This document shows, piece after piece, positions 5,736 through 25,730 of a stretch of DNA of 64,000 nt. Position 1 is the stretch's first letter; every line of letters begins with the position of its first letter. The position numbers and the translations under genes were made by a program. Origin of the DNA: Ignavibacteriota bacterium (GTDB lineage Bacteria > Bacteroidota > Ignavibacteria > UBA10030); the NCBI GenBank assembly GCA_003142475.1, contig PLMK01000006.1:10225-74224 (forward strand). Direction: 5' to 3'. The notes under the pieces are model-generated. The model ran no database searches. It was not told the origin of the DNA and worked only from the letters and a program-made list of their open reading frames with translations.

Positions 5736-6142
5736 AATATTATCTTCAGAGAGGGTTTAGTATATATCTACACTTGCAATGTAATAGGAGCAAACTACGC
5801 CTCTGTGTATTTTATCATTATTATTTACTCAGAAATGACGATTGAATACGACATTTGTATAGATAATATACGAAATTCTGTAGAAGGTTATTTGGATGAG
5901 GTTGGAAATTTAAAAAGAAATATTTTCCTGTGTATTACCAATAGTTAACTGATAAGGTTAATATTACGTGTCATCATCTGTTATAAAAATTTGGATTACA
6001 GGTTGCAATGTATAAGGAAGTGTGGCGGATAAACAAGCAATTCAAGAGGGGGGTGATCGCTTGTTTGGATTCGATTAACTTGATGCCAAGTAATGCAAAT
6101 CTCCGCCAGTGACTTCCTAGCTATACAATTTAAAATTATTGG

Positions 6143-6207
6143 CACAGGGTGAGGTGAACCACATTCCTTTCTTCCACCAGAAAAGAAACGTGTTATACCC
6201 TGTGCCT
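6143..6207 (-). terminator. long hairpin downstream of the T9SS protein gene
   Basis: 10-bp inverted repeat ggcacagggt / accctgtgcc enclosing an internally pairing loop, followed on the minus strand by A/T-rich sequence. Confidence 0.4.
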
Positions 6208-6228
6208 ATTACTCATTAAGATGATTCC

Positions 6229-7839: not shown

Positions 7840-7867
7840 TTTCCACCCTCCTGTAAAATATTTATCG

Positions 7868-8671
7868 TTATTCGTTCCTATCAGGACATTCTTCATGCAT
7901 CGGTCGATCTTGTTCATTCTCGGGTTTTGGCATGCGCGGCGGTCTTTGAGAATTTTTTTTTTGCAGTTCTTCATATTTCTTTTTCTGATTATCCGTTAGT
8001 ACAGCAGAGATTTTTGCATCGGTTTCCTTCCGCTGCTTTTCCATTTTCTCATGCATTGCTTCGCGTTCCTTCTTCATCTCTTCGCGCTTTGCCTCACGAT
8101 CTTTCTTTGCGGATTCGAACATCTTTTTCACTTCTTCACTTTGGGCCTCGAGGATTTTCTGAATTTTTGTTTCTTGATCGCTAGTAAAATTCAATTCTTT
8201 CTTTAACTCTTTCACAAATTCCTCGGGCGGCAGAGGCGGTTGATCCTCTGGCGGTATGTGTCCAAACATTGGCGGTTGACAATGAGTCTCTTCTTGGCGA
8301 CGATTAAATTTTTCACATTGCTTTTTCTGCATTTCTGTAAACGTTTCTTTTTGTTCTTTGGTTAACAAAGCGGTAATTTTTTCATCAGTTTCTTTTTTGA
8401 TTTTCATCATTGCTTCATGCGTTACTTTATATTCGTTTTCCGATGCTTTTGCTAACTTATCCATTTCGACCTTCTTTGCATCCATAATGGCCTTTATTTT
8501 TGCAATTTGTGCATCTGAAAGATTCAGATCTTTTTGAAGCTGTTCAATCCGATCTGGCTGATCTGCCGACGGCATGGGATGAGATTCCCGGGGTTGACCG
8601 TACACATACGTATAAACAATTAGGATGCAAACGACGAAAATCATTGATTTTAAAGCGACTGTATTTTTCAT
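7868..8671 (-). CDS. periplasmic LTXXQ-motif protein (CpxP/Spy-like), two repeats
   Basis: Signal peptide. Two LTXXQ repeats (LTKEQKETFTEMQKK and LTDNQKKKYEELQKK), highly charged helical repeats, and a Pro-rich linker. Confidence 0.65.
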   Translation of the reverse strand: MKNTVALKSMIFVVCILIVYTYVYGQPRESHPMPSADQPDRIEQLQKDLNLSDAQIAKIKAIMDAKKVEMDKLAKASENEYKVTHEAMMKIKKETDEKITALLTKEQKETFTEMQKKQCEKFNRRQEETHCQPPMFGHIPPEDQPPLPPEEFVKELKKELNFTSDQETKIQKILEAQSEEVKKMFESAKKDREAKREEMKKEREAMHEKMEKQRKETDAKISAVLTDNQKKKYEELQKKNSQRPPRMPKPENEQDRPMHEECPDRNE

Positions 8672-8736
8672 AGTTCACCTTTATTTATGTTTTATAGTTT
8701 CTTTGAAAATCATTTCTACTATTTCACAAATTTTTT

Positions 8737-8836
8737 TACAATTATCACTACTAACTTACAACTATCATCCTTCCAATGAGTTAAGAGCAGGATAAATCTT
8801 TGCTAAGAATGAAAAAAGATTGTTAAAATTGTTAAC
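8737..8836 (+). promoter_or_regulatory. conserved ~100-bp cis-element, copy A, upstream of the LTXXQ gene
   Basis: About 80-85% identical to 12988..13089. Core gagttaagagcaggataaatctttgctaagaatgaaaaaagattgttaaaattgttaa, with TGTTAA direct repeats 9 bp apart. Confidence 0.55.
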
Positions 8837-9101
8837 CCTTGTTTAGATAAATCATTGAGCAGCAATATGCTATTGAACTTTTTGTTTAGTTTTTTTTCTT
8901 TCATATTCATCGCTTCATATTCGGAAGAATAACAACCACCATATGCACCAAATGGGCCACAAATGGTTTCATACTAAACATCAAACTGTTTTTTCTACTG
9001 AATGGTTTCTATCGAGTGTAATTCTCACTTTACGATTCATCATTTCGGAATTATACCACACACCCTTTTTTACAGCTATTTTATCTTTCATTTCCAGATG
9101 C

Positions 9102-10085
9102 CTAATTATGAGCTAATGTTACTTGTGTCCATACTTCAATTGGTTCTGATGAATTAGAATCTTTTCCAGCACGACCGCCACCGGATCCTCCTGAACCACC
9201 ACCAGGAGGTGGTCCACCCTGTCCACCGCCAGAGCCACCTGATCCACCACCAGGAGGAGGTCCGCCTTGTCCACCGCCAGGACCGCCACCTCTAGGATCC
9301 ATTCCACTTGAAGAATTATCTTCTGTTTTAAATCCGATGCCAAGAACATTTTTCTTATCTGTAGGAGCAAGTGCCAACGGAAAATCACTTGTCTTATGTA
9401 GCGGTACTTGAAGTTCATACACAAAAACTTTTTGAGTTATCCCAATTTGCACCTTCATGGTTTTTAGCTCGATTGTGGTTTCTTGTTGTATGTCTTTTTC
9501 TTCTGGCCCAAGAAACTGTATTTCGCGTAAAGCACTGTTAAACATTGCCGACATTTTTCCATCATTGCTGCCTAAATTTGGCCTCGACATTATAGTATCC
9601 ATATTGCCGGGCATTGGAGGAGGCATACGGCTTTCATTTCTGTTGTTATCGGAATAATTATCCTCGTCACTATTAATCCCAGGCATTTGTGAAGAACTGC
9701 CATCTTTTTCCTTGTTCATTGGTTTGGTACCTTTAGGACGACCAACCGGAAATTTGATGCCGTACCGCTCATCCGTTCCTCCGGATGGGTCAAACCAGAC
9801 AGTAAATCCACCATCCATAATTTGGCGCCTTACACCTTGATCATAGGAAATGAAACATAGATAGATGTTCTCTGCGTCATTACGAACTCCGATAGTAACA
9901 TTGACTTTTTTCAAGTCATATAAACTTCCCTCCCATTCATTGAATTTACCGTCGATGACAATCTCGGACTTTTTCCAGTCACTGATCAATGGTACAGCAC
10001 TACTGCATCCCAACAATCCCAGCATGCTTATGAACATAAAATTGAGTAAGAATATTGCTGGTATTTGAAATATTCGTCTATTCAT
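9102..10085 (-). CDS. lipoprotein with C-terminal Gly/Pro-rich tandem repeats
   Basis: Probable start MNRRIFQ...LLGCSS (lipobox). C-terminal GGGQGGPPPGGGSGGSGGG occurs twice, encoded by a ~54-bp tandem DNA repeat. Confidence 0.55.
   Translation of the reverse strand: MNRRIFQIPAIFLLNFMFISMLGLLGCSSAVPLISDWKKSEIVIDGKFNEWEGSLYDLKKVNVTIGVRNDAENIYLCFISYDQGVRRQIMDGGFTVWFDPSGGTDERYGIKFPVGRPKGTKPMNKEKDGSSSQMPGINSDEDNYSDNNRNESRMPPPMPGNMDTIMSRPNLGSNDGKMSAMFNSALREIQFLGPEEKDIQQETTIELKTMKVQIGITQKVFVYELQVPLHKTSDFPLALAPTDKKNVLGIGFKTEDNSSSGMDPRGGGPGGGQGGPPPGGGSGGSGGGQGGPPPGGGSGGSGGGRAGKDSNSSEPIEVWTQVTLAHN
9180..9300 (-). repeat. ~54-bp tandem coding repeat (x2) for the Gly/Pro-rich segment
   Basis: Two near-identical units (cctga..ccaccaccaggagg.ggtcc.cc.tgtccaccgcc). 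Lies inside a CDS and has no spacers, so it is not CRISPR. Confidence 0.6.
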
Positions 10086-10145
10086 AATAACTCCTAAAGT
10101 AAGTGAGTGTTCTATTTTATTGTCCAACATTCAAAAGAACAATTA

Positions 10146-12959
10146 TCAAAAAGTCCCAGGACGTATTGTATAAGTTACTGTCAGCATTACGTAATTGGTC
10201 AATATTTTTGATCGCGTGTCTTCAATATATGCCGATGTCACTGTGTGCGATATAGAACTGTTCTGATGCAATACGTCAAAGGCGTTGAGGGCAATTTCAA
10301 GACTTTGATTCTTTAATAATTTTTTGGCAATACCGAGATTCCAGAGAATATAATGCTGGTCCTCCGATGTGCCTTCCGCATCGTATAATTGACGAGTCAA
10401 ATCACTTCGCATTATAATTCCATTCCACACATTAATGTTTGTTCTGAGGTTTGCATTGTGCTGATAATAATGCGTATTCAGACTGGATTCTTCGGTGTTT
10501 CTAGAATAGGTTAATGTATAATTATACATCAGCGTAAAATCGATATCCTCATTAATATTACTGGCTAGTACGACCCCCTGATTTAAACCATATGCTTGAG
10601 AATAATTCAAAACAGTATTAGTTACAGCTGGCATGCGTGCGTACGACAATCCAGTATTGATATTAAAATTGCATTGAATCCAATCAAGGGGGATACCATA
10701 GGAACACATAGAGTTTACGTTGTAATGACCATTCACATTGACCGGCATAGTTAATTGTGTCCCCTTGTTCAATATTGTGCCATTACTTAAAGTTGTATCG
10801 TGAGAAAAGAGATACGTCGAAGAAGCGATATAATGGTTAGTTGTGCGAACATTAAGCATAACAAAAAGGGAACTGCCATTTATGATATTGTTGAAAGAAT
10901 AATGCAGCATCAACTCGTGCGAGTAGCTTTGAGAAAGGCTTGGATTTCCGGATGTTAACATTGTGGATTTAGTATTATCCATTACATTTTGTAATTGACT
11001 GATAGAGGGTGACGCTGTCGAAGTCTTGTACATTAAATGGAATGAAATAGAAGAAGATGGCTTGTACATCATCAACACCATAGGCAAAATATTTGAATAA
11101 TCTCTGCTCAAAGAAAAAATTGCAGGGAATGTGTAATCGCCGCGCAAAGATGCTCGTTGAAAAGCGACATCTGCTATAAAATTCATTCTTTTCGTTTTCC
11201 CGCGATAGCCAAAACCAATTTGCTGTGTCACGTAGTCGCTGCTCAAGACATTTGACAACGAATCCTTTAAAAGGTTGTACTGCTGGTCATTTGGATCATA
11301 ATCATATACTTTTCTGTCAGACTCGTTCTTTGTTACCAACATATTATAGTTTAATTGAAATAAGTGATGTTCTCCAAATGGTTCTGTGTAGGAGATACTT
11401 GATCCTAGATTTCTCCCAGGAGAACAAGAAATAGTTTTTTGATTTGTTGAATCGCTTTTCGCGATTGTATTATCATAGTAAGTTGTAAGGGATTGTGTCA
11501 ATCCATCGGATTGTGTCCGGTCGGTGTTGAAACGCACTTGGGCTACCAATGTTCGCCCTTGAAGATTGAACAGATGTCTATAAAGTGCAGAGGTTTCAAG
11601 ATTATATCCCTTTGAATTGGTCGACGATTTTACTTGAGCATTATTGATCGGGCTCCCATCAGGCATATTCATATATGAAGAAGAACTGCTTGACGCATCA
11701 TTGGATTGAGTACTCAATCGCGGATCAACAATAATTGTATTGAGCGAATCGATTTTATACTCCACCCGCATTTGAAGGCGGTGGTTATAATTATTGTTAT
11801 CAGTGTTGCTTTTTTCGTGATAAAGTTGATTTCCATTCGAACCAATTCCAAACTGACGATCAATAGTAATATCGTTGTCGTTCTTAATGATATTGCCAAA
11901 ATAATTTCCTGTTGTATACACGTCTTTTGCTAACTGGTTGCCGTAATTTAACCCGAACGAATGCACAGTGTTATCGCCGCTTTGTTGTCCGATAGAGTTC
12001 GATCCTTCGCCCGGAGGTCTGCCGTTTTCCCCGCCGGGACTTCCGCCTGCCCCGTTATTCATTATACCTAACATATCCTGTACAGCAAAATTTTGTTGAT
12101 TAATATCATTACTCGAAGCGATGATGGAATATCGTTCATCACCGTTAAACACGTTAAACATGGTGCCAGCGAGATATTTATCACCGCCATACCCACCATA
12201 TATTTTTCCGAATTCTCCATGCCGACGATCTTCTTTTGTAACAACATTCATAGTTTTTGTCGATTGGCCGTCGTCAAATTTTGTTAATTCTGCCTGATCG
12301 CTCAATTTGTTGTACACCTGAATATTGTCCACCATATCTGCCGGAAGATTACGCAGTGCAATCATTGGGTCACTTCCAAAAAACTCTTTCCCATCCACAA
12401 ACACTTGTTTGATTTCCTCTCCCTGCACTTTCACTGTTTTATCTTCCACGGTAATACCTGGAAGCTTTTTCACCAAATCTTCAATTGTTGCGTCAGGATT
12501 TGTTCGGAATGCTCCTGCATTAAATTGGATCGTGTCGTGGTGCTGTTCTACAGTCGGTAATTGTGCCACAACATCAACGCTTTGCATGAGGACAGGCTGC
12601 TGGATGAGTACAATTGTTCCAACATGTTCATGGGCACTTTGTACGGGAATATCTATTTTTGATTCACGAAATCCAACGCATGAAACTTTAAGGAGATATC
12701 GTGCATACGGTATATTGTTAAACTGAAAATATCCCTGTTCGTTAGTGGCAGTACTATAGCGAACATCAGAAGTATTATTACGCATTAAAAGAACGGTAAC
12801 ATGTTCTAACGGAGCACGGTTAATAGTGTCAATAACAATTCCTGTTAACGATGCTTCTTGTGCAACGAGGAAAACCGGCAGGAATACTAATCCTATGACA
12901 CATATCGCTACATTGTTTTTTCGAACACCTTGATAATTTCTTTTTGATGCTGGTATCAT
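10146..12959 (-). CDS. outer-membrane beta-barrel protein, TonB-dependent-receptor-like, with N-terminal carboxypeptidase-regulatory-like domain
   Basis: 937 aa with a signal peptide. The CarbopepD_reg-like N-terminus (GIVIDTINRAPLEHVTVLL...GYFQFNNIPYARYLLKVSCVGF) is the Bacteroidetes SusC/TBDR architecture. C-terminus ...RPGTF ends in an aromatic residue. Confidence 0.65.
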   Translation of the reverse strand: MIPASKRNYQGVRKNNVAICVIGLVFLPVFLVAQEASLTGIVIDTINRAPLEHVTVLLMRNNTSDVRYSTATNEQGYFQFNNIPYARYLLKVSCVGFRESKIDIPVQSAHEHVGTIVLIQQPVLMQSVDVVAQLPTVEQHHDTIQFNAGAFRTNPDATIEDLVKKLPGITVEDKTVKVQGEEIKQVFVDGKEFFGSDPMIALRNLPADMVDNIQVYNKLSDQAELTKFDDGQSTKTMNVVTKEDRRHGEFGKIYGGYGGDKYLAGTMFNVFNGDERYSIIASSNDINQQNFAVQDMLGIMNNGAGGSPGGENGRPPGEGSNSIGQQSGDNTVHSFGLNYGNQLAKDVYTTGNYFGNIIKNDNDITIDRQFGIGSNGNQLYHEKSNTDNNNYNHRLQMRVEYKIDSLNTIIVDPRLSTQSNDASSSSSSYMNMPDGSPINNAQVKSSTNSKGYNLETSALYRHLFNLQGRTLVAQVRFNTDRTQSDGLTQSLTTYYDNTIAKSDSTNQKTISCSPGRNLGSSISYTEPFGEHHLFQLNYNMLVTKNESDRKVYDYDPNDQQYNLLKDSLSNVLSSDYVTQQIGFGYRGKTKRMNFIADVAFQRASLRGDYTFPAIFSLSRDYSNILPMVLMMYKPSSSISFHLMYKTSTASPSISQLQNVMDNTKSTMLTSGNPSLSQSYSHELMLHYSFNNIINGSSLFVMLNVRTTNHYIASSTYLFSHDTTLSNGTILNKGTQLTMPVNVNGHYNVNSMCSYGIPLDWIQCNFNINTGLSYARMPAVTNTVLNYSQAYGLNQGVVLASNINEDIDFTLMYNYTLTYSRNTEESSLNTHYYQHNANLRTNINVWNGIIMRSDLTRQLYDAEGTSEDQHYILWNLGIAKKLLKNQSLEIALNAFDVLHQNSSISHTVTSAYIEDTRSKILTNYVMLTVTYTIRPGTF

Positions 12960-12987
12960 TATTCAATGATATTTGTGATGAAATAAT

Positions 12988-13089
12988 TACAGTATCTCGA
13001 CTACAGTAATGTAAAGTATTCTTGAAATGTTGAGTTAAAATGAGGATAAATATTTGCTAAAGATGAAAAGAGTTTGTTAAGAGTGTTAA
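12988..13089 (+). promoter_or_regulatory. conserved ~100-bp cis-element, copy B, between the outer-membrane barrel gene and the histidine-kinase gene
   Basis: Same orientation and same distance (~75-110 bp) from a minus-strand gene start as copy A. Core gagttaaaatgaggataaatatttgctaaagatgaaaagagtttgttaagagtgttaa. Confidence 0.55.
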
Positions 13090-13130
13090 AAAACAATGAA
13101 GAAGAATAAATGGATGTGTATATTTGAATT

Positions 13131-14837
13131 ATGAAACTCCTGCAAACATACGGTAGTGCAGTTATCATTGTTGTCATTGCCATGGTGATCATACTTCCGC
13201 TTCTCGCTTATTTACAATACACATGGCTTGGTCAAATAAGCGAACAAGAATATGAACGGATGAAACAAAATTTGCAGACTACTGCATTTCATTGTTCCAT
13301 GGATTTCAGCCGTGAAATAACAGACTTAATGAAATCCCTTGGTGGAACACTTATCGGCTCCGACGATGACGTAGAAAAGACATTGCACGAGAGAATTATA
13401 AAGTGGCAAACAATATCCACATATCCTGCGATTGTTTCCACAGAAATCAAGATCGGTTCTTCGCCTTCTCCTGAACAGACTGTTCAGATCAAAGCGGACG
13501 AAGAATCAATGCTTTTTCTATTTAAAGATTTATCCGCAATGGCTATACCAATTAAGAACCGATCTCATGAAGTTGTCTTAGTACCATTAAATCTTGAATA
13601 TATTTCATCTTCAATTCTGCCAAAGATTATAAAAACAAATTTTTCATCGATTACTAGATCTGAATATGATATCGTTATCATCAATGACAAAGGAAATCAT
13701 ATTTACAATTCAGTTGATACAACGAAGCATGATATTCTTCAGAAAGCCGATCTTGTTATTCCATTTTTAACCTTCCCGCAAGTGCCGCCGCTTTCTTCGA
13801 TGCCGCCCGATCGACCGATTCTTAATCGAATGCATCTATACCGAGAGAATCCGCCTGAACCATTTGAACGAAATCCGAGAGAACTCGAGCGCAGATATGA
13901 CCTTCCTCCCCCACAAGGAAATATGATGCCAAGGGAAGAGGAAAGAAGATTGAGAGAACGTGGATTATTCGAGATGCAGTTGAAACATCGTGAGGGTTCT
14001 TTAGAAATAGCAGTAAATAAAAATCGACTGCGAAATTTCGGAATTAGTTTCGGTGTTTTGATTTTACTCGGAGCAAGCATTGTCTTTCTTCTTCTTTCTA
14101 CAAATAGAGCACGGCGTCTTGCGCAACAGCAATTGGAATTCGTTGCCGGCATCTCACACGAACTGCGAACACCTCTCGCTGTTCTGAAATCAGCAGGCGA
14201 GAATCTTGCAGACGGCGTCATTCAGGAAAAAGACCGCACACGGAAATATGGAGAGCTTATTAAAAATGAAGTTATTCGTCTTTCCGATATGGTCGAAAAG
14301 GCATTAGCATATGCCGGTATCCACTCTGGAAAACAAAACTATGAACTGCGTTCTATCGATATTACACCTATCATTACAGAAGCGATACAAAATGCAAAAA
14401 AACTCTTGCCATCGTATAATTTTAAGGCCGATACAGTTATTGATCTAAATCTTCCACAAGTGCTTGGAGATGCAACTGCATTACAATCAGCAATAGAGAA
14501 CCTAATCGTCAACGGGATAAAATATAGCTTAGAAAAGAAGTGGATCAATATCGAAGCACATCAAGTGAAAAACTCAAATGGATCGTTTGTAGAAATCAAA
14601 GTTATAGATCGCGGTATCGGTATTGCAGCGGCAGATTTTTCCCACATTTTCAAACCTTTTTATCGAGGCCAAAATGCAATAGAAGGACAAATACAGGGCA
14701 GTGGCCTTGGATTGAGTATAACAAGACATATTATTGAATTGCATGGAGGAACAATTTCTATAAAAAGTTCGCCTAATGAAGGAAGTGTATTTACAATTCT
14801 CCTTCCTTCAATAATACAGGATGAAGAAAGTAAATGA
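13131..14837 (+). CDS. sensor histidine kinase (two transmembrane helices, periplasmic sensor domain)
   Basis: HisKA H-box AGISHELRTPLAVLK and HATPase_c motifs (NLIVNGIKYS, GSGLGLSI). The periplasmic part has a Pro/Arg/Glu-rich low-complexity stretch before the second transmembrane helix. Confidence 0.85.
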   Translation: MKLLQTYGSAVIIVVIAMVIILPLLAYLQYTWLGQISEQEYERMKQNLQTTAFHCSMDFSREITDLMKSLGGTLIGSDDDVEKTLHERIIKWQTISTYPAIVSTEIKIGSSPSPEQTVQIKADEESMLFLFKDLSAMAIPIKNRSHEVVLVPLNLEYISSSILPKIIKTNFSSITRSEYDIVIINDKGNHIYNSVDTTKHDILQKADLVIPFLTFPQVPPLSSMPPDRPILNRMHLYRENPPEPFERNPRELERRYDLPPPQGNMMPREEERRLRERGLFEMQLKHREGSLEIAVNKNRLRNFGISFGVLILLGASIVFLLLSTNRARRLAQQQLEFVAGISHELRTPLAVLKSAGENLADGVIQEKDRTRKYGELIKNEVIRLSDMVEKALAYAGIHSGKQNYELRSIDITPIITEAIQNAKKLLPSYNFKADTVIDLNLPQVLGDATALQSAIENLIVNGIKYSLEKKWINIEAHQVKNSNGSFVEIKVIDRGIGIAAADFSHIFKPFYRGQNAIEGQIQGSGLGLSITRHIIELHGGTISIKSSPNEGSVFTILLPSIIQDEESK

Positions 14838-15535
14838 TCTCAGGCCAAAAGAGAATTCTTTTAGTAGAAGATGAAACCGGCTTAGTGTTGACATTGACAG
14901 ATAGACTTTCAAGCGAAGGATATGCAGTTACACATGCTGGTGATGGAGAAAAAGGTGAGAAGCTCGCATCCGAAGGACATTTTGATGTAATTCTTCTTGA
15001 TGTGATGCTGCCGAAAAAGAACGGATTTGATATTATCAGGGATCTGCGTAAGCGAGGAGTCACCACGCCAGTTTTGATGCTAACCGCTCGGGGGCAACTA
15101 AACGAAAAGGTTGTCGGGTTGAAACTTGGTGCTGATGATTATCTCACGAAACCTTTCGAAACGCTTGAACTGCTTGCACGAATAGAATCACTCTTGCGGC
15201 GGCATGCACCGGTAATTATTCCTATCTTGGAACTTGCGTCATATTCTTTTGGATTATTTAAAATTGATTTTATAAAGATGGAAATAAAGCGCAAAGGCAA
15301 ACTGATCGAACTCTCAGCACGCGAATTTCTGCTACTTCGATACTTCATCGAACATCGCGGCAGTGTCTTATCCCGCGAAACTATTCTTAACGATGTGTGG
15401 GGTTATGATGCAATGCCCACCACAAGAACTATCGACACTCACATTACTTGGCTTCGGCAAAAATTAGAAGAGAATCCAAAATTTCCTAAGTACATTCTCA
15501 CAGTTCATGGATTCGGATACAAGTTTGTTGGATAA
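14834..15535 (+). CDS. OmpR/PhoB-family response regulator
   Basis: Receiver domain (ILLVEDE...DVILLDVMLP) plus winged-helix trans_reg_C (LSAREFLLLRYFIEHRGSVLSRETILNDVWG). Its ATG overlaps the histidine-kinase stop (ATGA). Confidence 0.9.
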   Translation: MISGQKRILLVEDETGLVLTLTDRLSSEGYAVTHAGDGEKGEKLASEGHFDVILLDVMLPKKNGFDIIRDLRKRGVTTPVLMLTARGQLNEKVVGLKLGADDYLTKPFETLELLARIESLLRRHAPVIIPILELASYSFGLFKIDFIKMEIKRKGKLIELSAREFLLLRYFIEHRGSVLSRETILNDVWGYDAMPTTRTIDTHITWLRQKLEENPKFPKYILTVHGFGYKFVG

Positions 15536-15754
15536 TCCCCAATCCAAACTAGTACAATAAAAACATACAAGGAGTTTTTTCGATACGTTTGGCTTAGTAC
15601 TATTGATTTGCAGGTTTAAATCAAAGGTTCATCAGTCCACAACAATCAGAAGTGGCATTTGCGATGACAATATACGAAATTGTATTAATCAGTAACTAAA
15701 ACGAGATTCATCATTCAAAGAAAAATTCATATTGTAACACTCGTTGCAACCTTT

Positions 15755-17260
15755 TTGTTGTTATTTGTCCAATGTTCCTTGTCTGCACAGCAACAAAAGA
15801 AGCCACAGGCGTTCCGGAGCACAGACGTTGAATCAATACCACTCGTTCTTCCCTCCACTCTTGATCTCCAGTTACTCGAAGAATTCGTTCTAATGCAGAA
15901 AGCAAATGCTGGCGAATCACCAGCACAGCATGAATTGGGATTACGCTATTTATTCGGTAAAGGATTTCCAGCCGATACCGCAAAAGCATCTTATTGGATT
16001 CAAAAAGCTGCAGATCAACACCTGCCGCCTGCGCAATTTAACCTGGGTATTTTACTAATGAATGGTCGCGGAGTTGAGTGGAATCCTTTTGAGGCATTCA
16101 AACAGTTTCGTGCCGCCGCCGAACAAGATATACCAGAAGCGCTTTATGTGACGGGACTAATGTACACTGAAGAACTTATTGTACCGCGGAGCTGGCCAAA
16201 AGCTTACGGCTTTTTTAAAAAGGCATCTGAACTCGGATCAGATGCCGCAAAGGTTACAAAGAAAGAAATGGAACGACGTGGGCTGGATAAGATAGACACT
16301 TTGGATATTATGGCGCCCAGAAAGGAACATCCGAAGAACAATACGACTCGGTCGATGCCAATCGATACAGGATCCAGTCTTTTGTTCATTGATTTCCACA
16401 CCGACACAACTTCAACTATTGAAGATACAACTCTTATTCGTGAAGCGTACCAAGGAATTGATACTCTCTCTCAATCGACAACCACTGAAAAGAACACGAC
16501 AGCAAGTCTGGACCCTAGCATTCAATCGTTATTGTCAAAAGTAGCAAAGTCTGGAAATCCGGAAGCACTTTGTCTGCTTGGACGTTGTTATGAACGTGGA
16601 CTAAATGTTCGCAAGGATATTATTCTTGCAGGTGTGTATTACTTGCGTGCTTTTATTCTTAACTCATATCGAGCACCGGCGTTGCTTTGGAAGTTGATGA
16701 ATACAGTAGAATTTGCCCGTGAACTTGAATTACGATCCTCAAAAAACGACCCAGATGCACTTTATCTGTGGTCTGGGATAACATCTATCGGTTTCAGTAA
16801 GCTGTTGAATGAGAAACAGGCATTCGATCTTCTCCAACGTGCGGCGGCGGCGGGACAATTGCCCGCGATGGTAGAATTAGGATCGTGTTACCTCACTGGA
16901 CGATGGGTTCAACAGGATCGTGATAAAGCAATTGAGTTATGGAATCGCGCCTCTCGATTAGGCAGTGTTGAGGCAGATATTCGTCTTGCGGGAGCAAATC
17001 TATTAGGCCAAATTCATACGGAAGAAATAGATTCTGCGTTGTTTGTTCTCCGAGTTACATCTCAAAATGGTTCATTGCTTTCGGATTTGACGCTAGCACA
17101 TTGCTATGAAAAAGGAATTGGATTGACACAGAACAAAGGTGAGGCGTACCGCATCTTTCATAAATCAATGCTGAGAGGAAGTGAGACAGCATTTCGTGCT
17201 CTTCGCAGTATGCATGATGAAATACGTCCCTCTACACAAGAATTTCAAATGCCAGACTGA
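15755..17260 (+). CDS. Sel1-repeat (TPR-like) secreted protein
   Basis: Repeated Sel1 motifs (A...LG..Y..G.GV..D...A..W..KAA.QG). TTG start; an alternative TTG lies at 15743. Confidence 0.6.
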   Translation: MLLFVQCSLSAQQQKKPQAFRSTDVESIPLVLPSTLDLQLLEEFVLMQKANAGESPAQHELGLRYLFGKGFPADTAKASYWIQKAADQHLPPAQFNLGILLMNGRGVEWNPFEAFKQFRAAAEQDIPEALYVTGLMYTEELIVPRSWPKAYGFFKKASELGSDAAKVTKKEMERRGLDKIDTLDIMAPRKEHPKNNTTRSMPIDTGSSLLFIDFHTDTTSTIEDTTLIREAYQGIDTLSQSTTTEKNTTASLDPSIQSLLSKVAKSGNPEALCLLGRCYERGLNVRKDIILAGVYYLRAFILNSYRAPALLWKLMNTVEFARELELRSSKNDPDALYLWSGITSIGFSKLLNEKQAFDLLQRAAAAGQLPAMVELGSCYLTGRWVQQDRDKAIELWNRASRLGSVEADIRLAGANLLGQIHTEEIDSALFVLRVTSQNGSLLSDLTLAHCYEKGIGLTQNKGEAYRIFHKSMLRGSETAFRALRSMHDEIRPSTQEFQMPD

Positions 17261-17333
17261 AACTGAATAAAGACTGAGAAGAAAGAACTCTTGAAGGAAC
17301 CCTGTAAGGATATCACACCTCAATCTCCGCTAA

Positions 17334-17429
17334 TAGATCTACCGAAGGAATAAAATTCCAACTCCGGCAACTGCCGTACACGCTCCAATGATAGCACGCC
17401 AAGAGAGCTTCTCGTGAAATAGAATCCAT
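17334..17429. repeat. 96-bp direct repeat, copy 1 (relic 3' ends of sensor and EamA paralogues)
   Basis: About 90% identical to 20309..20404. Retains in-frame codons ...DLPKE* (sensor-like) and, on the opposite strand, ...LFHEKLSWRAIIGACTAVAGVGILFLR* (EamA-like). Confidence 0.8.
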
Positions 17430-17503
17430 ACATTGATTCTTGTTCACCGTTATATTAGATTAATACTTAGTGTGATTCATTTCATTCATTAATAAATACG
17501 GCT

Positions 17504-20326
17504 ATGCAAAAAATTAATGTGATAGTAATGAGAATAGCGCTTCTATTTCTTGCGTCATTATTTACTATTTTTAGCACAATTGCCCAAACTGAGAAAATGG
17601 CATTTAAAAGCCTGACTACAAGCATGGGTTTGTCTCATGGAGATGTGTTGTGCTTTTATCAGGACCATGACGGTTATATTTGGATCGGTACGACGGATGG
17701 TTTAAACAAATATGATGGTGTCGGATTTACTGTATACAAAAATAATCAAAAAGATTCCACTTCTTTAATAAGTAGTTACATTAACTGTATATATGAAGAC
17801 AAACAAAATAATCTCTGGATTGGATTACAAGACGGTTTATGCAGATATGACCGGGATAAAAATAATTTCGAGAGAATATCCTTCATTGATATTCACGATA
17901 ACAAATTTGGTAATTCTGTAAATCAAATATTTGAAGACAATAGTAAGGGGTTGTGGGTTGGATGCAGTGAAGGAGTATATTTATTTAACAGGGAAAATAA
18001 AAGATTTACTGCCTGCTTTAAGGATTCTTCCAACATAAATACTTTAATGAATTGTTCCGGTATATGCCAGGATAAAGACGGGATGCTTTGGTTCTCTTTT
18101 ACGCATGCTCCTAACCTTGGTATCATACAATACAATGCGGTAACAAATACGGCAATCCAATATAGCACACAAAATCCTCTATATAAATTAAGGGAAAATT
18201 CTGTCAATTGCTTAATGGTTGATAACCAAAATAATATTTGGGTTGGTCATATTTCAAGCGGCATTGAGGTAATCAATTTACGAACAAAAACAATTACCAG
18301 CTATCAGACTATTGTCAATAATCATAATTCTTTAAGCAATAACAATATTTTTTCGATGGCACAGAATAAGGATGGGAAAATACTTATCGGTACGAATGGA
18401 GGAGGTATAAGTGTTTTCGATCCCAGCACAAAATTATTCTGCCAATACACTGCATCGGAATCCGATCGGTCATTATTAAGTAATGTCATTCAAAGAATAT
18501 ACATTAGTCGCGATGGTATGGTGTGGATTGGATGTTGGGGGGCCGGCGTAAGCATTTATGATAAGCGCTTTGAACGGTTTGCACTATATAGACAAAATAA
18601 AGAAGACATAAATTCTTTAGATGGTAGCTCGGTTACGTGTTTTACACAAGATTTAAATGGAAATATATGGATAGCGACAGATGGCGGCGGAATTAATTCA
18701 TTTAATCCGTCTACAGGAAACTTCACAAGACACAGAAGCGATAGTAAAAATCCTCTGACGTTAACCAACAACAAGGTTTTGGCGCTCAATAAAGATAATA
18801 AGGGCGGTTTGTGGGCAGGTATGTGGCAGGGCGGATTAAACTATTTTAAAATAGACGGTGATAAACTTATTTTAAAGAAGAAATACAATTTTGTTGATGA
18901 AAACGATTTGACCAGTAATAGTATTTTTAATATTTATTTTAATAAAGACAATGAACTCTGGGTAGGAAATTATTTAAGCGGGGCATATAAATATGATCCC
19001 TCTACTGAAAAATTTAAATCCATAAAATTTATTTCAGGAGCAATTACGTACATTTCAATAAGGGATATTTTATGTGATTCCTACAACGACGTATGGTTTG
19101 CCTCTGATACTTATGGTTTAACAAGGATGAACCGTGAATCCGGAGAAATTGACAGATTTATGCATGACGAAAAAGATAGCACCAGCTTGATTAAAAACTC
19201 AATAAATGTTGTTTTTGAAGACAGCAAAAAACGTTTATGGGTTAGTGGTGATGGAGATGGATTGAATCTTTTTAACCGTAAAACTAAATCTTTTACACAT
19301 TATACTACTGAACAGGGATTGCCTGATAATTCACTTGTGGGGATATTGGAAGATGAACATGGTAATCTATGGATTAGCAGCCATAATGGTATTTCAAAGG
19401 CAACCATCGATTCAACAAATTCAATAAATGGAAAACTAGATCTTACATTCAGGAATTATACGGTTCAGGATGGATTACAAGGTAAAGTTTTTAATCGCTG
19501 GGCTTATTATAAAAGCAGAACAGGTGAAATGTATTTTGGCGGGCTTAATGGTTTCAACGTGTTTCATCCGGATAGTATAAAAGATAATAGTTATATACCC
19601 CCGGTCCATATTACTGATTTTTTACTGTTCAATAAACCAGTGATCATTGGAGCAAAAGGCTCGCCCCTGCAAAAGCATATTTCGCAAACAAAAAAATTGG
19701 TGTTAAATTATGACCAAACCAACTTTACATTTAAGTTTATTGCATTAAATTATATTTTCAGCGAAAAGAACCAATATGCTTATATAATGGAAGGTTTTGA
19801 GAAAGACTGGAATTATGTAGGAAATAAGAAAGAGGCTGTTTACACGAACCTTGACCCGGGTGAATATACATTCAGAGTCAAGGCTTCCAACAACGATGGT
19901 ATCTGGAACGAAGAAGGGACTTCAATCAAAATCATTATTCTGCCTCCGTGGTGGAACACCTGGTGGTTCTATAGCTTTATACTGGTTGTGATGATAGGAT
20001 TCGTGTTTGGTCTGTACCGATGGCGTGTTTGGCAACTCTTAGCAAGAGAAAAAATGTTAAAAGCCAATGTTAAAGAAGCCGTGGCAAAAATCAAAGTGCT
20101 AAACGGTCTTATCCCCATTTGTGCAAGCTGCAAGAAAATACGCGATGACAAAGGATATTGGGATCAGTTAGAAGGATATATCCAGAGTCACTCAGAAGCT
20201 AAATTTAGTCATGGTGTTTGTCCGGAGTGTGCTGAAAAGTTATATGGTGACTTTTATAAAAAAATGAAAAATCAACAAGATGTGACTTCCGCAATATCAC
20301 TGCCGCCAGATCTACCTAAGGAATAA
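17504..20326 (+). CDS. membrane sensor protein: periplasmic two-component-regulator beta-propeller/Y_Y_Y repeats, one transmembrane helix, cytoplasmic coiled coil and Cys-rich C-terminal domain (no kinase)
   Basis: Repeated WIGT..GL..YD units and the Y_Y_Y-like region are typical of Bacteroidetes hybrid sensors. Transmembrane helix WWFYSFILVVMIGFVFGLY. Instead of HisKA/HATPase it ends in IPICASCKKIRDDKGYWDQLEGYIQSHSEAKFSHGVCPECAEK. Confidence 0.75.
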   Translation: MQKINVIVMRIALLFLASLFTIFSTIAQTEKMAFKSLTTSMGLSHGDVLCFYQDHDGYIWIGTTDGLNKYDGVGFTVYKNNQKDSTSLISSYINCIYEDKQNNLWIGLQDGLCRYDRDKNNFERISFIDIHDNKFGNSVNQIFEDNSKGLWVGCSEGVYLFNRENKRFTACFKDSSNINTLMNCSGICQDKDGMLWFSFTHAPNLGIIQYNAVTNTAIQYSTQNPLYKLRENSVNCLMVDNQNNIWVGHISSGIEVINLRTKTITSYQTIVNNHNSLSNNNIFSMAQNKDGKILIGTNGGGISVFDPSTKLFCQYTASESDRSLLSNVIQRIYISRDGMVWIGCWGAGVSIYDKRFERFALYRQNKEDINSLDGSSVTCFTQDLNGNIWIATDGGGINSFNPSTGNFTRHRSDSKNPLTLTNNKVLALNKDNKGGLWAGMWQGGLNYFKIDGDKLILKKKYNFVDENDLTSNSIFNIYFNKDNELWVGNYLSGAYKYDPSTEKFKSIKFISGAITYISIRDILCDSYNDVWFASDTYGLTRMNRESGEIDRFMHDEKDSTSLIKNSINVVFEDSKKRLWVSGDGDGLNLFNRKTKSFTHYTTEQGLPDNSLVGILEDEHGNLWISSHNGISKATIDSTNSINGKLDLTFRNYTVQDGLQGKVFNRWAYYKSRTGEMYFGGLNGFNVFHPDSIKDNSYIPPVHITDFLLFNKPVIIGAKGSPLQKHISQTKKLVLNYDQTNFTFKFIALNYIFSEKNQYAYIMEGFEKDWNYVGNKKEAVYTNLDPGEYTFRVKASNNDGIWNEEGTSIKIIILPPWWNTWWFYSFILVVMIGFVFGLYRWRVWQLLAREKMLKANVKEAVAKIKVLNGLIPICASCKKIRDDKGYWDQLEGYIQSHSEAKFSHGVCPECAEKLYGDFYKKMKNQQDVTSAISLPPDLPKE

Positions 20327-20404
20327 AATCCCAACTCCAGCGACTGCTACACATGCTCCAATGATAGCACGCCAAGAGAGCTTCTCGTGAAATAGAATCC
20401 ATAC
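20309..20404. repeat. 96-bp direct repeat, copy 2 (functional convergent 3' ends of the sensor and EamA genes)
   Basis: See copy 1. Covers the 15-bp convergent overlap of 17504..20326 and 20312..21202. Confidence 0.8.
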
Positions 20405-21202
20405 AGTCGGAAGCATAAGAATAGGAACTGTTGCCATAATCGTTGCTGCAACAGCGACAGTTGTTGATGAAATGGCAATGAGGCTGAATGTTACACCAAG
20501 ATATGGGCCAAGGAACGCACCCAGCATTGTGAAATTGAATGCTTTCTGGTCATCTCTGAATACTATAAAAGGGTGTGTAAATCGTCCCGCATAATAATTC
20601 AACGGCAGCAGTACGATGGTAGCGGCAACAGCTCGAATAAAAGTCGCAATAAATCCATTAATTTCTCCTAACGCAAAAGCCTTTTTTGCCAATATAAGTC
20701 CACCAGCCTGACCCGCCGCACCAAGGAGAGCGTACCATAAACCAGTCATAGATATCGGAGTATGATGTGAAGATGGTTCTCTTCGTTCTAGGATAACAAG
20801 AGCAATACCGCCAAGAGTGATGATCATTCCAAGAATAGCTGTGGACGAAAGTGTTTCTTGAAGAAAAAAATACGCAAATACCGCAGTGATAGCGGGTGCC
20901 GTTGACATTATGAGCATACTAATTCGCGCATCGTTATATTCGTACGATTTAAAAAGAAACGTATCGCCGAAAACAAACCCAATTAAACCACTAATGGAAA
21001 GAAACATCACCTGTACAGCAGATACATTCACCTTAATATCGCAAACGACGATAGTCGCAAATAAGAAAACAACCGCCGCAATAAGCCGCACAACATTTAC
21101 GTACACAGAACCGACACGCGTAGTTCCTGCAGCAAAAGCAAGCGCGCTTCCTGTCCACATCACGGCTGTTATAAGAGCGCTTAATTCCCCGGTGTATGAC
21201 AT
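20312..21202 (-). CDS. EamA/DMT-family transporter
   Basis: Ten predicted transmembrane helices with two EamA-like halves. 296 aa. Confidence 0.8.
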   Translation of the reverse strand: MSYTGELSALITAVMWTGSALAFAAGTTRVGSVYVNVVRLIAAVVFLFATIVVCDIKVNVSAVQVMFLSISGLIGFVFGDTFLFKSYEYNDARISMLIMSTAPAITAVFAYFFLQETLSSTAILGMIITLGGIALVILERREPSSHHTPISMTGLWYALLGAAGQAGGLILAKKAFALGEINGFIATFIRAVAATIVLLPLNYYAGRFTHPFIVFRDDQKAFNFTMLGAFLGPYLGVTFSLIAISSTTVAVAATIMATVPILMLPTVWILFHEKLSWRAIIGACVAVAGVGILFLR

Positions 21203-21357
21203 ACGATTAAAAATTTGTTTTCAAGTGGCATTGATTAAAAAGTGCATGCAAGGTAGGAAATTCTCCAACGAAAAGCAGGTAATCACAAATCAACCTGCTT
21301 TGAGAATTCGATGTAATCATTTTTTCTGGTTGCAGACTTCCTTACAGATAACGTTCT

Positions 21358-22149
21358 TCAAGTTTTTCTCTTTTGTTGAACTTTTTTTACTAGCTTCCCA
21401 GGGAATGATCGCGGCAAAAATCGGACTACTTGAGTACCAAGCCAATTTTTCCATCCTGAAATAACAAGCGGCTTTCCTTTCATCAACCCTTTATACCCGT
21501 CAAGCGCAACCTCTTGAGAATCCATCGACAACATACCGCCCATAAGTATTTCATTTGTAAAACCAGCTCTCTTTCCAAATCCTGTAGCTGTCGGGCCGGG
21601 ACAAAGCGTTGTAACTGTTATGCCTGTTCCTCGCAATTCTTCCGACAATGCCTCTGAGAAGCTTAGCACATAAGCTTTTGATGCATAGTATATAGCCATC
21701 AGCGGACCGGGTTGAAACGCGGCTGTCGATGCAACATTTAATATTTTTCCGCGCTTTCGTTCAATCATTCCTGGCAATAAGAGCCGTGTGAGATGTGTAA
21801 GCGCTATAATGTTCACTTGAATCATTTCCAAAGCATTAGTAAGTTCCATTTGTGCAAACTCACCGCGCCAACCAAAACCAGCATTGTTGACAAGTACATC
21901 AATGTTAATCATCTCACTTTTAAGTGATCGGACAATTTCATCTGATGCGGATGAAACAGATAAATCTTTAGAATAATATTTTACTTGTATGTTATATGTT
22001 TTTTCTAATTCATCAGCAATAGTTTTCAATTTATCATAACTGCGTGCAATAAGAACAAGATTGTACCCGTCACGCGCAAAAAGTTTTACCAACTCCAAGC
22101 CAATCCCGCCTGAGGCACCTGTAATGAGCGCAATAGGTTTTATATTCAT
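21358..22149 (-). CDS. SDR-family short-chain dehydrogenase/reductase
   Basis: TGASGGIGLELV Rossmann motif and YYASKAYVLSFSEAL catalytic YxxxK. Confidence 0.85.
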   Translation of the reverse strand: MNIKPIALITGASGGIGLELVKLFARDGYNLVLIARSYDKLKTIADELEKTYNIQVKYYSKDLSVSSASDEIVRSLKSEMINIDVLVNNAGFGWRGEFAQMELTNALEMIQVNIIALTHLTRLLLPGMIERKRGKILNVASTAAFQPGPLMAIYYASKAYVLSFSEALSEELRGTGITVTTLCPGPTATGFGKRAGFTNEILMGGMLSMDSQEVALDGYKGLMKGKPLVISGWKNWLGTQVVRFLPRSFPGKLVKKVQQKRKT

Positions 22150-22181
22150 AATAATTCCTTATTAATTACGTGTCAATTTCG

Positions 22182-23609
22182 TTACTTCACATACATCTCG
22201 ATCATCCGTTCAATAGCTGCGGCACAGACAGGATCAAAGTCCACCGGGTTCAAAGCAAACATCTTGCAGTCTATAGCAGGACGATACATGTCTTTCGACG
22301 TGTATCCTGAACCTTCAAATGCGCCGACGATTCCATTCCATTGAGGATTTTTTAGAATTTCGTTTGAACTTTTTAATAATCCTTCACGCTTCTCATAGTA
22401 ATCGGAAGCAAGACGGTCTAAATTACCTCTCAATGTCTCAATGCTATCGTACTTTGTTTTTTGCCAAGGTGTTGGAACTGGTGTGTCCAATGAAATAAAG
22501 TTGTGCCATTTTAAATTTTCTTTTGTATTCGTGCGCGTTACATTGGGTTCCCACGGTTCAACACCCTTCGGATAGAAGTCAACATATGAAACCTGCGAGC
22601 TGTAATATTCGTCGCCTAATCCGCCAAAGCAATGGCCAAATTCATGTACATAGACATAGTCCATTTCCGATTCTTGTCCGGCCTTTACAGGTTTCGTAAA
22701 GCAGGTTGTGTAGAGATTGAAGATTCCACCACCGCCATAACGGTTATCGTTCACAAGAATCGTAATAAAATCGTAAGGCGCTACATCAGCGATATCACGT
22801 AACACTCGATTTTCTTCCGTTAAAACGTACCGTGCAGAACCAAATGTGTTGTACATCGTGCCAAGTGCTGTATGTTTCCAAACATTTTGATCCGGTTTAT
22901 CGATGCCGGAATCGTCCGAGATCACTTCCATTGCACGAACGTTGAAATCATTTTTGTGTTTTTTAAATGGCTGGTACGAAAAAAGTTGTTCGGTAAAATG
23001 CTTCGCGTCCTTCCTGAATTTCTCAATGTCTCCTTTTGCATAGCCATCACCGAGGACAAGGATATCCACTTTCTTTTCAATCGAACCGTTGATCATGACA
23101 TCAAATATTTTATACGGGCTCTGCCTTTTTTCCCGATTAATTGCGGTTGGTGAATTTGGATCAACGATGAACGATGCAACTTCTCGGAACGTCATCATCT
23201 CGCCGACCGCTACAAATTTATCGCGTCTGAAAAAGCTGATAATAACTTTTTGTTTCGGAAATGGTAACCGAACAGTTTCATGAAATGTCCGCCACGATCC
23301 GCTCAACGCTTCTTCCGTGGTTTGCCATTCACCAAATACTGTTGAATAACCGCGTGAATAAAGAAGCAAATTAGTTTGAAGATCGCTTACCTTCACAAAA
23401 CAATCGCCGAGATTGAGTGTATCGAGCAAATTCACTTTGCTGCCGGGCCAGTCGCTTTCTTCGTACACACGATCCAGTGTGATTTGTTCTTGTCCTTTTG
23501 TGCCGATGTGATAGTAATCCACACGCATAGTGGAATTGGTAAAATATTTATCGTAGTTCTGAGCGAAGGAAAGGGAAATTGTGAAGAAAAGAAGGAATAA
23601 CATTTTCAT
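22182..23609 (-). CDS. secreted zinc metallopeptidase, M64 (IgA-peptidase-like) family
   Basis: Signal peptide and a HEFGHCFGGLGDEYY HExxH block like M64 peptidases. Size ~475 aa. Confidence 0.5.
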   Translation of the reverse strand: MKMLFLLFFTISLSFAQNYDKYFTNSTMRVDYYHIGTKGQEQITLDRVYEESDWPGSKVNLLDTLNLGDCFVKVSDLQTNLLLYSRGYSTVFGEWQTTEEALSGSWRTFHETVRLPFPKQKVIISFFRRDKFVAVGEMMTFREVASFIVDPNSPTAINREKRQSPYKIFDVMINGSIEKKVDILVLGDGYAKGDIEKFRKDAKHFTEQLFSYQPFKKHKNDFNVRAMEVISDDSGIDKPDQNVWKHTALGTMYNTFGSARYVLTEENRVLRDIADVAPYDFITILVNDNRYGGGGIFNLYTTCFTKPVKAGQESEMDYVYVHEFGHCFGGLGDEYYSSQVSYVDFYPKGVEPWEPNVTRTNTKENLKWHNFISLDTPVPTPWQKTKYDSIETLRGNLDRLASDYYEKREGLLKSSNEILKNPQWNGIVGAFEGSGYTSKDMYRPAIDCKMFALNPVDFDPVCAAAIERMIEMYVK

Positions 23610-24759: not shown

Positions 24760-25730
24760 ATGTTGTATATTTTAGGTAGTTAAATAACCTAAGGAACATT
24801 ATGAAAACCGTTGCAAAACATACCGAACCGAAAATACAAAGCTTATTAGATGTTGAAAAAGTATTCCCAGATGAAAAAACATGTATTGAATATATGATTC
24901 AAAAGCGTTGGAACGGTAAGCCAAGATGCCCACACTGTGATAGTGAAAAAGTATATCGCTATTCAGACAACAAGCGGTTCAAGTGCCCCGCTTGTGCTAA
25001 ACAGTTCACAATAAAAATTGGTACCATCTTTGAAGATTCACCTCTTTCATTGCAAAAATGGTTCTTTGCAATATTCTTACTTACAGCACACAAAAAAGGA
25101 ATTTCATCTTGTCAATTGGCAAGAGATATTCATGTAACACAAAAATCAGCATGGTTTATGACTCAAAGAATTCGTGAATTGATGAAAACAAATTCCTTTG
25201 AAAAGAAATTAAACGGAATAGTTGAAGCAGATGAAACTTACGTCGGCGGAAAGAAACATAGTGGCAAACGTGGACGCGGTTCTGAGAACAAAACGCCAGT
25301 ATTCGGAATGGTAGCAAGACAGGGCGACGTAAGGACTATGCCAGTTGAAAGAGTGAACGGCGAAACCTTAAAAGGACTTATCCGAAAGAACGTAGACCTT
25401 AACGCCGTAGTAATGACAGACGAATGGACTGCGTATAATAATCTTTCCAATGAATTCAAACATGAAGTAATCAACCACAGTTCAAAAGAATATGTGAGAG
25501 GCAATATTCACACAAACAACATTGAAAACTTTTGGAGTTTGCTTAAACGCGGTATAGTAGGAATTTATCATCATGTTGATCCTAAACATTTACATCGCTA
25601 TACCGATGAATTTCAGTATCGTTATAATTCAAGAAAAATTACCGACGCAGATAGATTCACGCAAATTTTAAGTCAATGCGAAGGACGCTTGACATATGCA
25701 ACGCTTATTAATAAATAGGTGTTATTATGA
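24760..25730 (+). mobile_element. IS1595-family insertion sequence (ends not resolved)
   Basis: Contains a single IS1595-type transposase gene. Terminal inverted repeats could not be identified by eye, so boundaries are approximate. Confidence 0.5.
24801..25718 (+). CDS. IS1595-family transposase
   Basis: N-terminal zinc-ribbon (CPHCDSEKVYRY...KCPACAKQF), then ...SLQKWFFAIFLLTAHKKGISSCQLARDIHVTQKSAWFMTQRIRE... and a DDE core (VEADETYVGG...MTDEW). 305 aa. Confidence 0.85.
   Translation: MKTVAKHTEPKIQSLLDVEKVFPDEKTCIEYMIQKRWNGKPRCPHCDSEKVYRYSDNKRFKCPACAKQFTIKIGTIFEDSPLSLQKWFFAIFLLTAHKKGISSCQLARDIHVTQKSAWFMTQRIRELMKTNSFEKKLNGIVEADETYVGGKKHSGKRGRGSENKTPVFGMVARQGDVRTMPVERVNGETLKGLIRKNVDLNAVVMTDEWTAYNNLSNEFKHEVINHSSKEYVRGNIHTNNIENFWSLLKRGIVGIYHHVDPKHLHRYTDEFQYRYNSRKITDADRFTQILSQCEGRLTYATLINK

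Follow-up and report, generated by a model that had tools for sequence, protein, structure and literature searches.

Repeats and genes at the locus

We describe a pair of direct repeats flanking a sensor gene in a 64 000-nt stretch of DNA (hereafter the window; contig PLMK01000006.1, positions 10 225–74 224, of assembly GCA_003142475.1) from a metagenome-assembled genome (MAG) of an uncultured Ignavibacteriota. The locus is bounded on its left by a gene for a Sel1-repeat protein (15755–17260, plus strand; Pfam Sel1). There follow a 74-nt segment that we call the scar (17261–17334, plus strand), the first repeat copy R1 (17335–17432), an upstream region that contains a novel junction and the presumed promoter of the sensor gene (17433–17503, plus strand), the sensor gene itself (17504–20326, plus strand), and the second repeat copy R2 (20308–20405), where the sensor gene meets the convergent gene for an EamA/DMT transporter (20312–21202, minus strand; Pfam EamA). 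Genes for a short-chain dehydrogenase (SDR; 21358–22149, minus strand) and an M64 peptidase (22182–23609, minus strand), both assigned from open reading frames (ORFs) and Pfam, lie beyond. The sensor, designated type ‘A’, has 940 aa, with a Pfam Reg_prop beta-propeller, a Y_Y_Y domain, a transmembrane segment, and a Cys-rich C-terminal module, and is without a kinase domain. We consider it probable that the repeats are a footprint of recombination and not a functional element, left when a resident sensor was lost and a foreign sensor was joined to the locus together with a second EamA end.

A search of positions 15000–23000 returned this repeat as the single long direct one. Its copies are 98 nt each and identical at 90 of 98 positions (92%), their starts are 2973 nt apart, and in a pairwise alignment of the two regions the similarity stops sharply at either end. 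A sequence-only reading of the window had already noticed a ~96-bp pair of ~90% identity; the pair is real, with its limits corrected from 17334–17429 and 20309–20404 to the coordinates given above. Comparison of the window with itself, which that reading had recommended, found a 50-nt core exactly twice in the 64 kb, in R1 and R2, and 0 times in 100 shuffles. The repeat structure is identical base for base in >20 contigs that come from independent assemblies of this organism (including L005, L006, L007, and L032–L037, where L numbers denote the related loci or contigs compared with the window); the NCBI MAG contig PLNH01000215.1 (GCA_003142715.1) is among those with the identical structure, which is therefore not an artefact of one assembly.

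R2 (minus strand) is the live EamA 3′ end. By ORF coordinates the sensor and EamA frames overlap by 15 nt (20312–20326), as the sequence-only reading had stated, so that R2, which also covers the sensor’s last 5 codons and stop, is the working convergent junction. R1 (minus strand) duplicates, in a displaced position, the last 83 nt of EamA; the copied end consists of 27 codons, the stop codon, and 4 nt. Its minus strand translates as VWILFHEKLSWRAIIGACTAVAGVGILFLR*, which is the EamA C-terminus but for V→T, and the plus strand downstream of the Sel1 stop reads IKTEKKELLKEPCKDITPQSPLIDLPKE*, both in agreement with the earlier translations. On the plus strand, the first 19 nt of R1 give the last five codons and stop of a fossil sensor, (D)LPKE*. 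R1 is non-coding in the window haplotype, with no ORF of at least 20 aa in its EamA frame, and is the working EamA end in a sensor-less haplotype described below.

The two copies differ at 8 nt, five of which are synonymous single changes and three of which fall within one codon (ACG versus GTA), so that 5 of the 6 differing codons are synonymous (P = 0.0045); an earlier count of 5 synonymous differences among 7 was right as to the five and one short as to the total. The 48 nt nearest to the stop contain all 8 of the differences (in R1, 17335–17382, minus strand; P = 0.003). The other 50 nt (in R1, 17383–17432, minus strand) are identical to 20356–20405 and likely represent an exchange or conversion tract, and a substrate for recombination between R1 and R2.

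Promoter- and terminator-like sites in 17100–17700 were no more frequent than in shuffles, with 0 inside R1, and RNA folding of 17255–17510 was unconvincing (fold z-score only −1.85). An imperfect hairpin at 17412–17448 (GTGAA-ATAGAATC ... GATTCT-TGTTCAC) spans the junction of R1 with the sensor upstream region, with most of the first ~16 nt of the insert reverse-complementary to the final ~16 nt of R1; it could be due to chance or could be a trace of how the joint was formed.

Sensor fossils and tandem sensors in related loci

Relatives were found by an EamA-anchored scan of species-representative genomes and then by a metagenome scan, which added ten further related loci. In all of them a Sel1 orthologue (77–87% aa identity) adjoins the sensor/EamA slot. 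Five loci (L017–L021) have the order Sel1 → sensor →← EamA, and the stop of the sensor gene overlaps that of EamA; their resident sensors, designated type ‘B’, have the architecture of the window sensor but are only ~30% identical to it in aa. L014 (EamA 88% identical in aa) and L015 each combine a live B sensor with a fossil C-terminal module adjoining EamA, and L016 and L022 have fossils only. Two Ignavibacteriota MAGs (L001 and L002) with EamA proteins 76% identical to that of the window have the order M64 → SDR → EamA →← Sel1 without a sensor. In the 230-nt spacer of L001 the Cys-rich C-terminal module survives as a frameshifted fossil whose end, ...SQSPSTDLPKK*, lies over the EamA stop, and the sensor remnant in the L002 spacer is only ~30 nt.

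From these sensor-bearing, sensor-plus-fossil, and fossil-only relatives it follows that the ancestral state was a sensor convergent on EamA. The comparison of related loci proposed from the window sequence thus shows the ancestral order in this Ignavibacteriota group to be Sel1 → sensor →← EamA, with the sensor’s last codons antisense to those of EamA. Sensors have been lost repeatedly among the relatives, leaving remnants of differing length (L001, L002, L016, and L022). The Sel1 orthologue of L002 is itself split by a frameshift near its 3′ end (L002 10925–11200, at ~aa 437 of the window protein), reflecting either a pseudogene or a long-read assembly error.

The scar of the window reads ...EKKELLKEPCKDITPQSPLI, continuing into DLPKE*, and we compared it with other loci without gaps, anchored at the repeat start, and with shuffles as control. 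The Sel1–EamA spacer of L022 is collinear with the end of the window’s Sel1 gene, the 74-nt scar, and R1, and matches the scar at 47 of 60 nt; in L031, the sensor-less contig discussed below, the scar is identical. In both L022 and L031 the scar-equivalent spacer adjoins a functional EamA gene. The scar matches the live sensor tail of L018 at 16 of 30 nt (P < 0.001) and L001 at 15 of 30 nt (P = 0.006), and matches the window’s own live sensor tail at 16 of 60 nt (~25–27%), no better than shuffled sequence; by unanchored local alignment, its similarity to sensor tails was not significant.

The scar is thus a genuine fossil of a sensor 3′ tail, probably derived from an older resident (‘B’-like) sensor and not from the present one. 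The sequence-only reading had recognized R1 as a displaced EamA 3′ end preceded by a fossil sensor tail, and the match to L018 upholds that. We reject a reading of the fossil as a decayed copy of the present sensor’s tail: the resemblance to that sensor is at the shuffled level, and the segment is orthologous to the L022 and L031 spacers and resembles B sensors. A strict typing of fossil tails as ‘A’ or ‘B’ was tried and dropped, since the distinction is fuzzy and all the tails form one homologous family. For annotation, neither R1 nor the scar should be called a gene.

Tandem sensors occur in L028 and L030 (EamA 80% identical to the window’s), which carry two and three B-family sensors, respectively, convergent on EamA. 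Between sensors 1 and 2 of L030 lies a fossil EamA tail that is identical to the live tail at 79 of 86 nt, has an internal deletion, and reads ...SWRAVVGACVAVAEVGILFLR*; the older junctions in L030 and L028 retain only ~20 nt of EamA tail. The duplicating unit in the relatives is thereby shown to be the upstream region, the sensor, and the EamA 3′ end. As the sensor overlaps the EamA end, a sensor added without breaking EamA must bring an EamA 3′ end along. The duplication boundary within EamA lies ~148 nt before the stop in L030 versus 83 nt in the window, so the two events were independent. A tandem duplication of the convergent sensor–EamA unit followed by deletion, which the sequence-only reading had proposed for the window, is thus real as to the duplication of the unit in L030 and L028, but it is rather unlikely to be the window’s own history.

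We also sought the window’s junction of R1 with the sensor upstream region in L014, L015, L011, and L016, using local alignment and shuffles, and found nothing significant; the best case was a 15-nt match, equalled in 7 of 300 shuffles and in 386 of 1000 under softer scoring. The search therefore gives no evidence that the junction predates the window lineage.

The sensor-less allele and the origin of the present sensor

An EamA protein with the change V283T is the predicted outcome of a crossover between the two repeat copies, and this protein was found by exact look-up in the protein collection, as P0121. Its contig, L031 (= L038; ENA ERZ28654907, 2569 nt), contains Sel1, the 74-nt scar, one R1-type repeat copy, and the EamA body, and equals window 15752–17432 joined to 20406–21260, with 100% identity over 2536 nt and 0 mismatches. 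The repeat is present once at the empty site, both in L031, which belongs to the window’s population and has 100% identical flanks, and in L022, L001, and L002. R1 and R2 are thus shown, from this one contig, to permit precise homologous excision, by which the sensor is removed and an intact EamA gene with V283T is rebuilt. Either L031 is the allele as it stood before the insertion or, on the simpler view, it arose when R1 recombined with R2. Exact sequence matching of the sensor and of the 455-aa and 501-aa forms of Sel1 found no further sensor-less contigs besides L031. The last 33 nt of L031, upstream of Sel1 (window equivalent 15719–15751), differ from the window and form a strong terminator-like hairpin (AAAAGCCCG-ttagaaata-GCGGGCTTTTTT); this distinct end suggests a genuine second haplotype with a different left neighbour.

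The closest homologues of the present sensor have 76–79% protein identity over its first ~88% only and then continue as HisKA/HATPase kinase domains; these kinases stand in tandem arrays in L012 and L013. At the nucleotide level, the identity to these histidine-kinase paralogues is 83–84% over a periplasmic-domain block (17467–19969, plus strand) that takes in ~40 nt upstream of the start codon and excludes the C-terminal output module (19970–20326, plus strand; transmembrane, coiled, and Cys-rich (CxxC...HGVCPEC) parts and tail). The sensor upstream region, which travels with the sensor, is homologous from ~17455 to the upstream regions of the same paralogues. In L011 the sensor is 95.5% identical in nt (window 17507–19533), whereas the adjacent Sel1 is only 65% identical and the upstream spacer is unrelated; this disparity between sensor and Sel1 shows that the sensor was recently exchanged laterally. 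The present sensor belongs to a lineage other than the resident type, with a foreign or chimeric origin. The tandem kinase arrays, the swaps of output domain, and the 95.5% copy in L011 bear out the earlier view that the sensor is part of a duplicating, recombining family.

The Cys-rich module of the sensor (~75 aa, in the region of aa ~822–940, after the transmembrane segment) reads ICASCKKIRDDKGYW...HSEAKFSHGVCPECAEKLYG. It gave only sub-threshold Pfam matches (best E = 0.027, DUF3039) and 0 NCBIfam matches; the module type is conserved in the resident sensors of all the relatives (41–53% aa identity), and it may be an uncharacterised zinc-binding output domain. The window’s other ~940-aa ORF (10146–12959) was considered as a sensor paralogue and rejected as an unrelated outer-membrane beta-barrel protein, and an apparent 944-aa sensor variant in L007 and L034 proved to be a scaffold gap of Ns. 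Assemblies break or gap exactly at 18402–18430 inside the sensor gene (Ns in L007 and L034; ends of L009, L010, and L036), likely because sensor paralogues share a k-mer there or because the site varies among strains.

The flanks are mosaic as well. By sliding-window identity, the EamA and SDR block (20308–22200, minus strand) is ~90% identical in nt to L014 and ~65–80% to the other relatives. Within M64 the similarity to L014 falls to 61–87%, and L001, L018, and L021 become the nearest relatives; in the 5′ half of M64 the identity to these three is 85–90% in nt, versus only 61–77% to L014. The SDR/M64 boundary at ~22200 is a recombination breakpoint between diverged lineages. Farther right, an IS1595-family transposase gene (24801–25718, plus strand) and small ORFs, extending to ~26573, lie between M64 and the neighbouring genes; in L001 and L002 an Nramp gene directly abuts M64. 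L008, from the same species, follows the window up to 26573 and then has MgtE and Nramp genes that are not at that point in the window, a further structural polymorphism beside the insertion sequence (IS). On the other side, a ~9.2-kb block adjoining Sel1 (~6065–15320) is missing in L001 and L002. It contains, among others, genes for a TonB-type outer-membrane barrel (10146–12959), a histidine kinase (13131–14837), and a response regulator (14834–15535). L001 retains a fossil of the response-regulator 3′ end (aa 160–233, 82% identical), L021 has the kinase/regulator pair, and the block is another site of gain or loss.

Probable recombination history and comparison with known systems

In the history that we favour, the resident ‘B’-type sensor would have been deleted first, leaving the 74-nt scar and R1 as the real EamA terminus. 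Later, an ‘A’-type sensor would have been joined after 17432, bringing 71 nt of upstream sequence and an EamA 3′ end of its own; it would have displaced the old EamA end (R1) and supplied the present one (R2, or its stop-proximal half at the least). The 8 differences, mostly synonymous, would then be allelic ones between two EamA ends that were both once functional. The right-hand join would be homologous, inside the EamA tail, and the left-hand join (17432|17433) is a novel adjacency. The latter could have come about by homologous transfer from a donor in which a tandem duplication had taken place, by single-crossover (Campbell-type) integration of circular DNA, or by homology-facilitated illegitimate recombination anchored by the EamA homology. 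This order of events, with the older sensor lost while R1 became the working EamA end and a different sensor arriving afterwards, replaces the duplication followed by deletion that had been proposed from the sequence alone.

As expected of a recombination footprint, the flanking copies have the same orientation, a single copy stands at the empty site, and L031 is the predicted recombinant. For homology-facilitated illegitimate recombination, the EamA tail offers a plausible anchor (EamA–SDR is ~90% identical to L014), and the left joint is a novel adjacency. Several points weigh against the favoured history. The assignment of the R1 and R2 variants to lineages rests on 8 sites only, and any conversion of one repeat copy by the other could obscure the sequence of events that we infer. 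A donor with this sensor beside EamA was not found (L011 ends inside the sensor), and the junction of R1 with the sensor upstream region left no detected trace in the relatives searched. L031 is a singleton from a short-read metagenome assembly, in which a misjoin via the 50-nt core is possible.

We think it rather unlikely that the present sensor and EamA tail were duplicated in tandem in situ, with the upstream sensor copy then deleted but for its last ~24 codons and the EamA-tail copy. Intact tandem units do exist in L030 and L028, and the geometry of R1, sensor, and R2 is what duplication followed by deletion should leave behind. The window itself, however, holds one sensor and a scar of the other type, and not the tandem sensor + EamA 3′ end units of L030 and L028. 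The scar and the live sensor tail match at the shuffled level (16 of 60 nt), while the adjoining repeats are 92% identical, a combination that a single in situ duplication with decay cannot produce; nor can it produce the differences between the repeats, which are codon-structured and confined to one half. That 5 of 6 differing codons are synonymous indicates that the copies diverged while coding. Moreover, the scar is orthologous to the L022 and L031 spacers, which abut functional EamA without a sensor, and the resident type, which the scar resembles, has only ~30% identity to the present sensor.

It is highly improbable that the 2.9-kb segment is an element that transposes or integrates site-specifically, with the repeats as its target-site duplication or attachment sites. 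Direct repeats do flank an insert that is missing from an otherwise identical allele, and the IS1595 transposase gene is 4.4 kb away (24801–25718). Yet the sensor is the only substantial ORF in 17433–20307, which encodes no transposase or integrase (the other ORFs are few, of 55–94 aa, and all inside the sensor on the opposite strand), and no terminal inverted repeats were among the repeat pairs reported, nor does the insert have a short identical duplication at its ends. At 98 nt, with 8 codon-structured differences, the repeats far exceed known target duplications (tested as identical copies of 2–14 bp), and duplicated EamA tails are of other lengths elsewhere (~148 nt in L030; ~20 nt at older junctions). 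It is scarcely credible that the repeat arose by chance or through an artefact of assembly, or that R1 is a conserved regulatory element with no relation to EamA. The small hairpin at 17412–17448 is all that could be cited for it; the shuffles and the independent assemblies refute chance and artefact, and a regulatory role is at odds with the translation of R1 as the EamA C-terminus, the modest fold z-score, and the shuffle-level promoter- and terminator-like sites.

Beyond the footprint itself, we find it quite unlikely, though compatible with several observations, that the upstream region, sensor, and EamA 3′ end form a recombinase-free cassette, which would loop out by recombination of the EamA-tail repeats and enter other genomes anew through one crossover at their EamA 3′ end. 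These observations are the L031 allele, the 95.5% sensor in a lineage with 65% Sel1 identity, and the recurrent EamA-tail fossils in L028 and L030. If the cassette were real, the EamA terminus would be a de facto attachment site, moving periplasmic sensors among diverged Ignavibacteriota lineages. The mechanism at the window is otherwise ordinary recombination, and no new mechanism is revealed. The locus illustrates, in nature, the constraint that overlapping ends of convergent genes place on gene turnover: the addition of a sensor beside EamA requires a spare EamA end, and the spare end makes the addition reversible. Across the relatives and one peat-bog population each of its stages can be seen, as ancestral order, tandem arrays, fossils of various lengths, foreign replacement, and a sensor-less allele, and the locus should be useful as a marker of strain-level sensor variation.

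Bacterial tandem segmental duplications are lost by RecA-dependent recombination between direct repeats. The window resembles tandem duplication and amplification (cf. PMC1428787) in its head-to-tail unit with a novel junction, in the precise removal of that unit, and in the intact arrays of L030 and L028. It differs in that only the 98-nt ends are duplicated, with allelic, codon-structured differences and a foreign or chimeric gene between them, and is therefore not a plain recent duplication. In Campbell-type integration, circular DNA enters by a single homologous crossover. This process likewise duplicates the homology around the insert, produces hybrid repeat copies, and is reversible by the same crossover; unlike in that process, no circular intermediate or replicon is detectable at the window locus, and the 50-nt identity in both copies would need identical donor sequence or conversion.

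At polymorphic toxin loci (T6SS (type VI secretion system) effector–immunity arrays and C-terminal displacement in Rhs), orphan 3′ ends have been proposed to arise from homology-facilitated illegitimate recombination (PMC5361080). The modules of the window are instead periplasmic sensors, with no immunity-type selection evident, and they are anchored at the 3′ end of EamA, a convergent neighbour, rather than at the 5′ part of their own gene. The Rhs, contact-dependent inhibition (CDI), and T6SS arrays stack their orphan 3′ ends downstream of a conserved 5′ body, whereas the fossils of the window lie upstream of the live sensor, so the correspondence is one of analogy only. Within that analogy, the window and the toxin loci (PMC5361080) share a module that enters at a conserved anchor and displaces the old 3′ end as a fossil, repeated events that string such orphan ends together, and lateral transfer as the supplier of modules.

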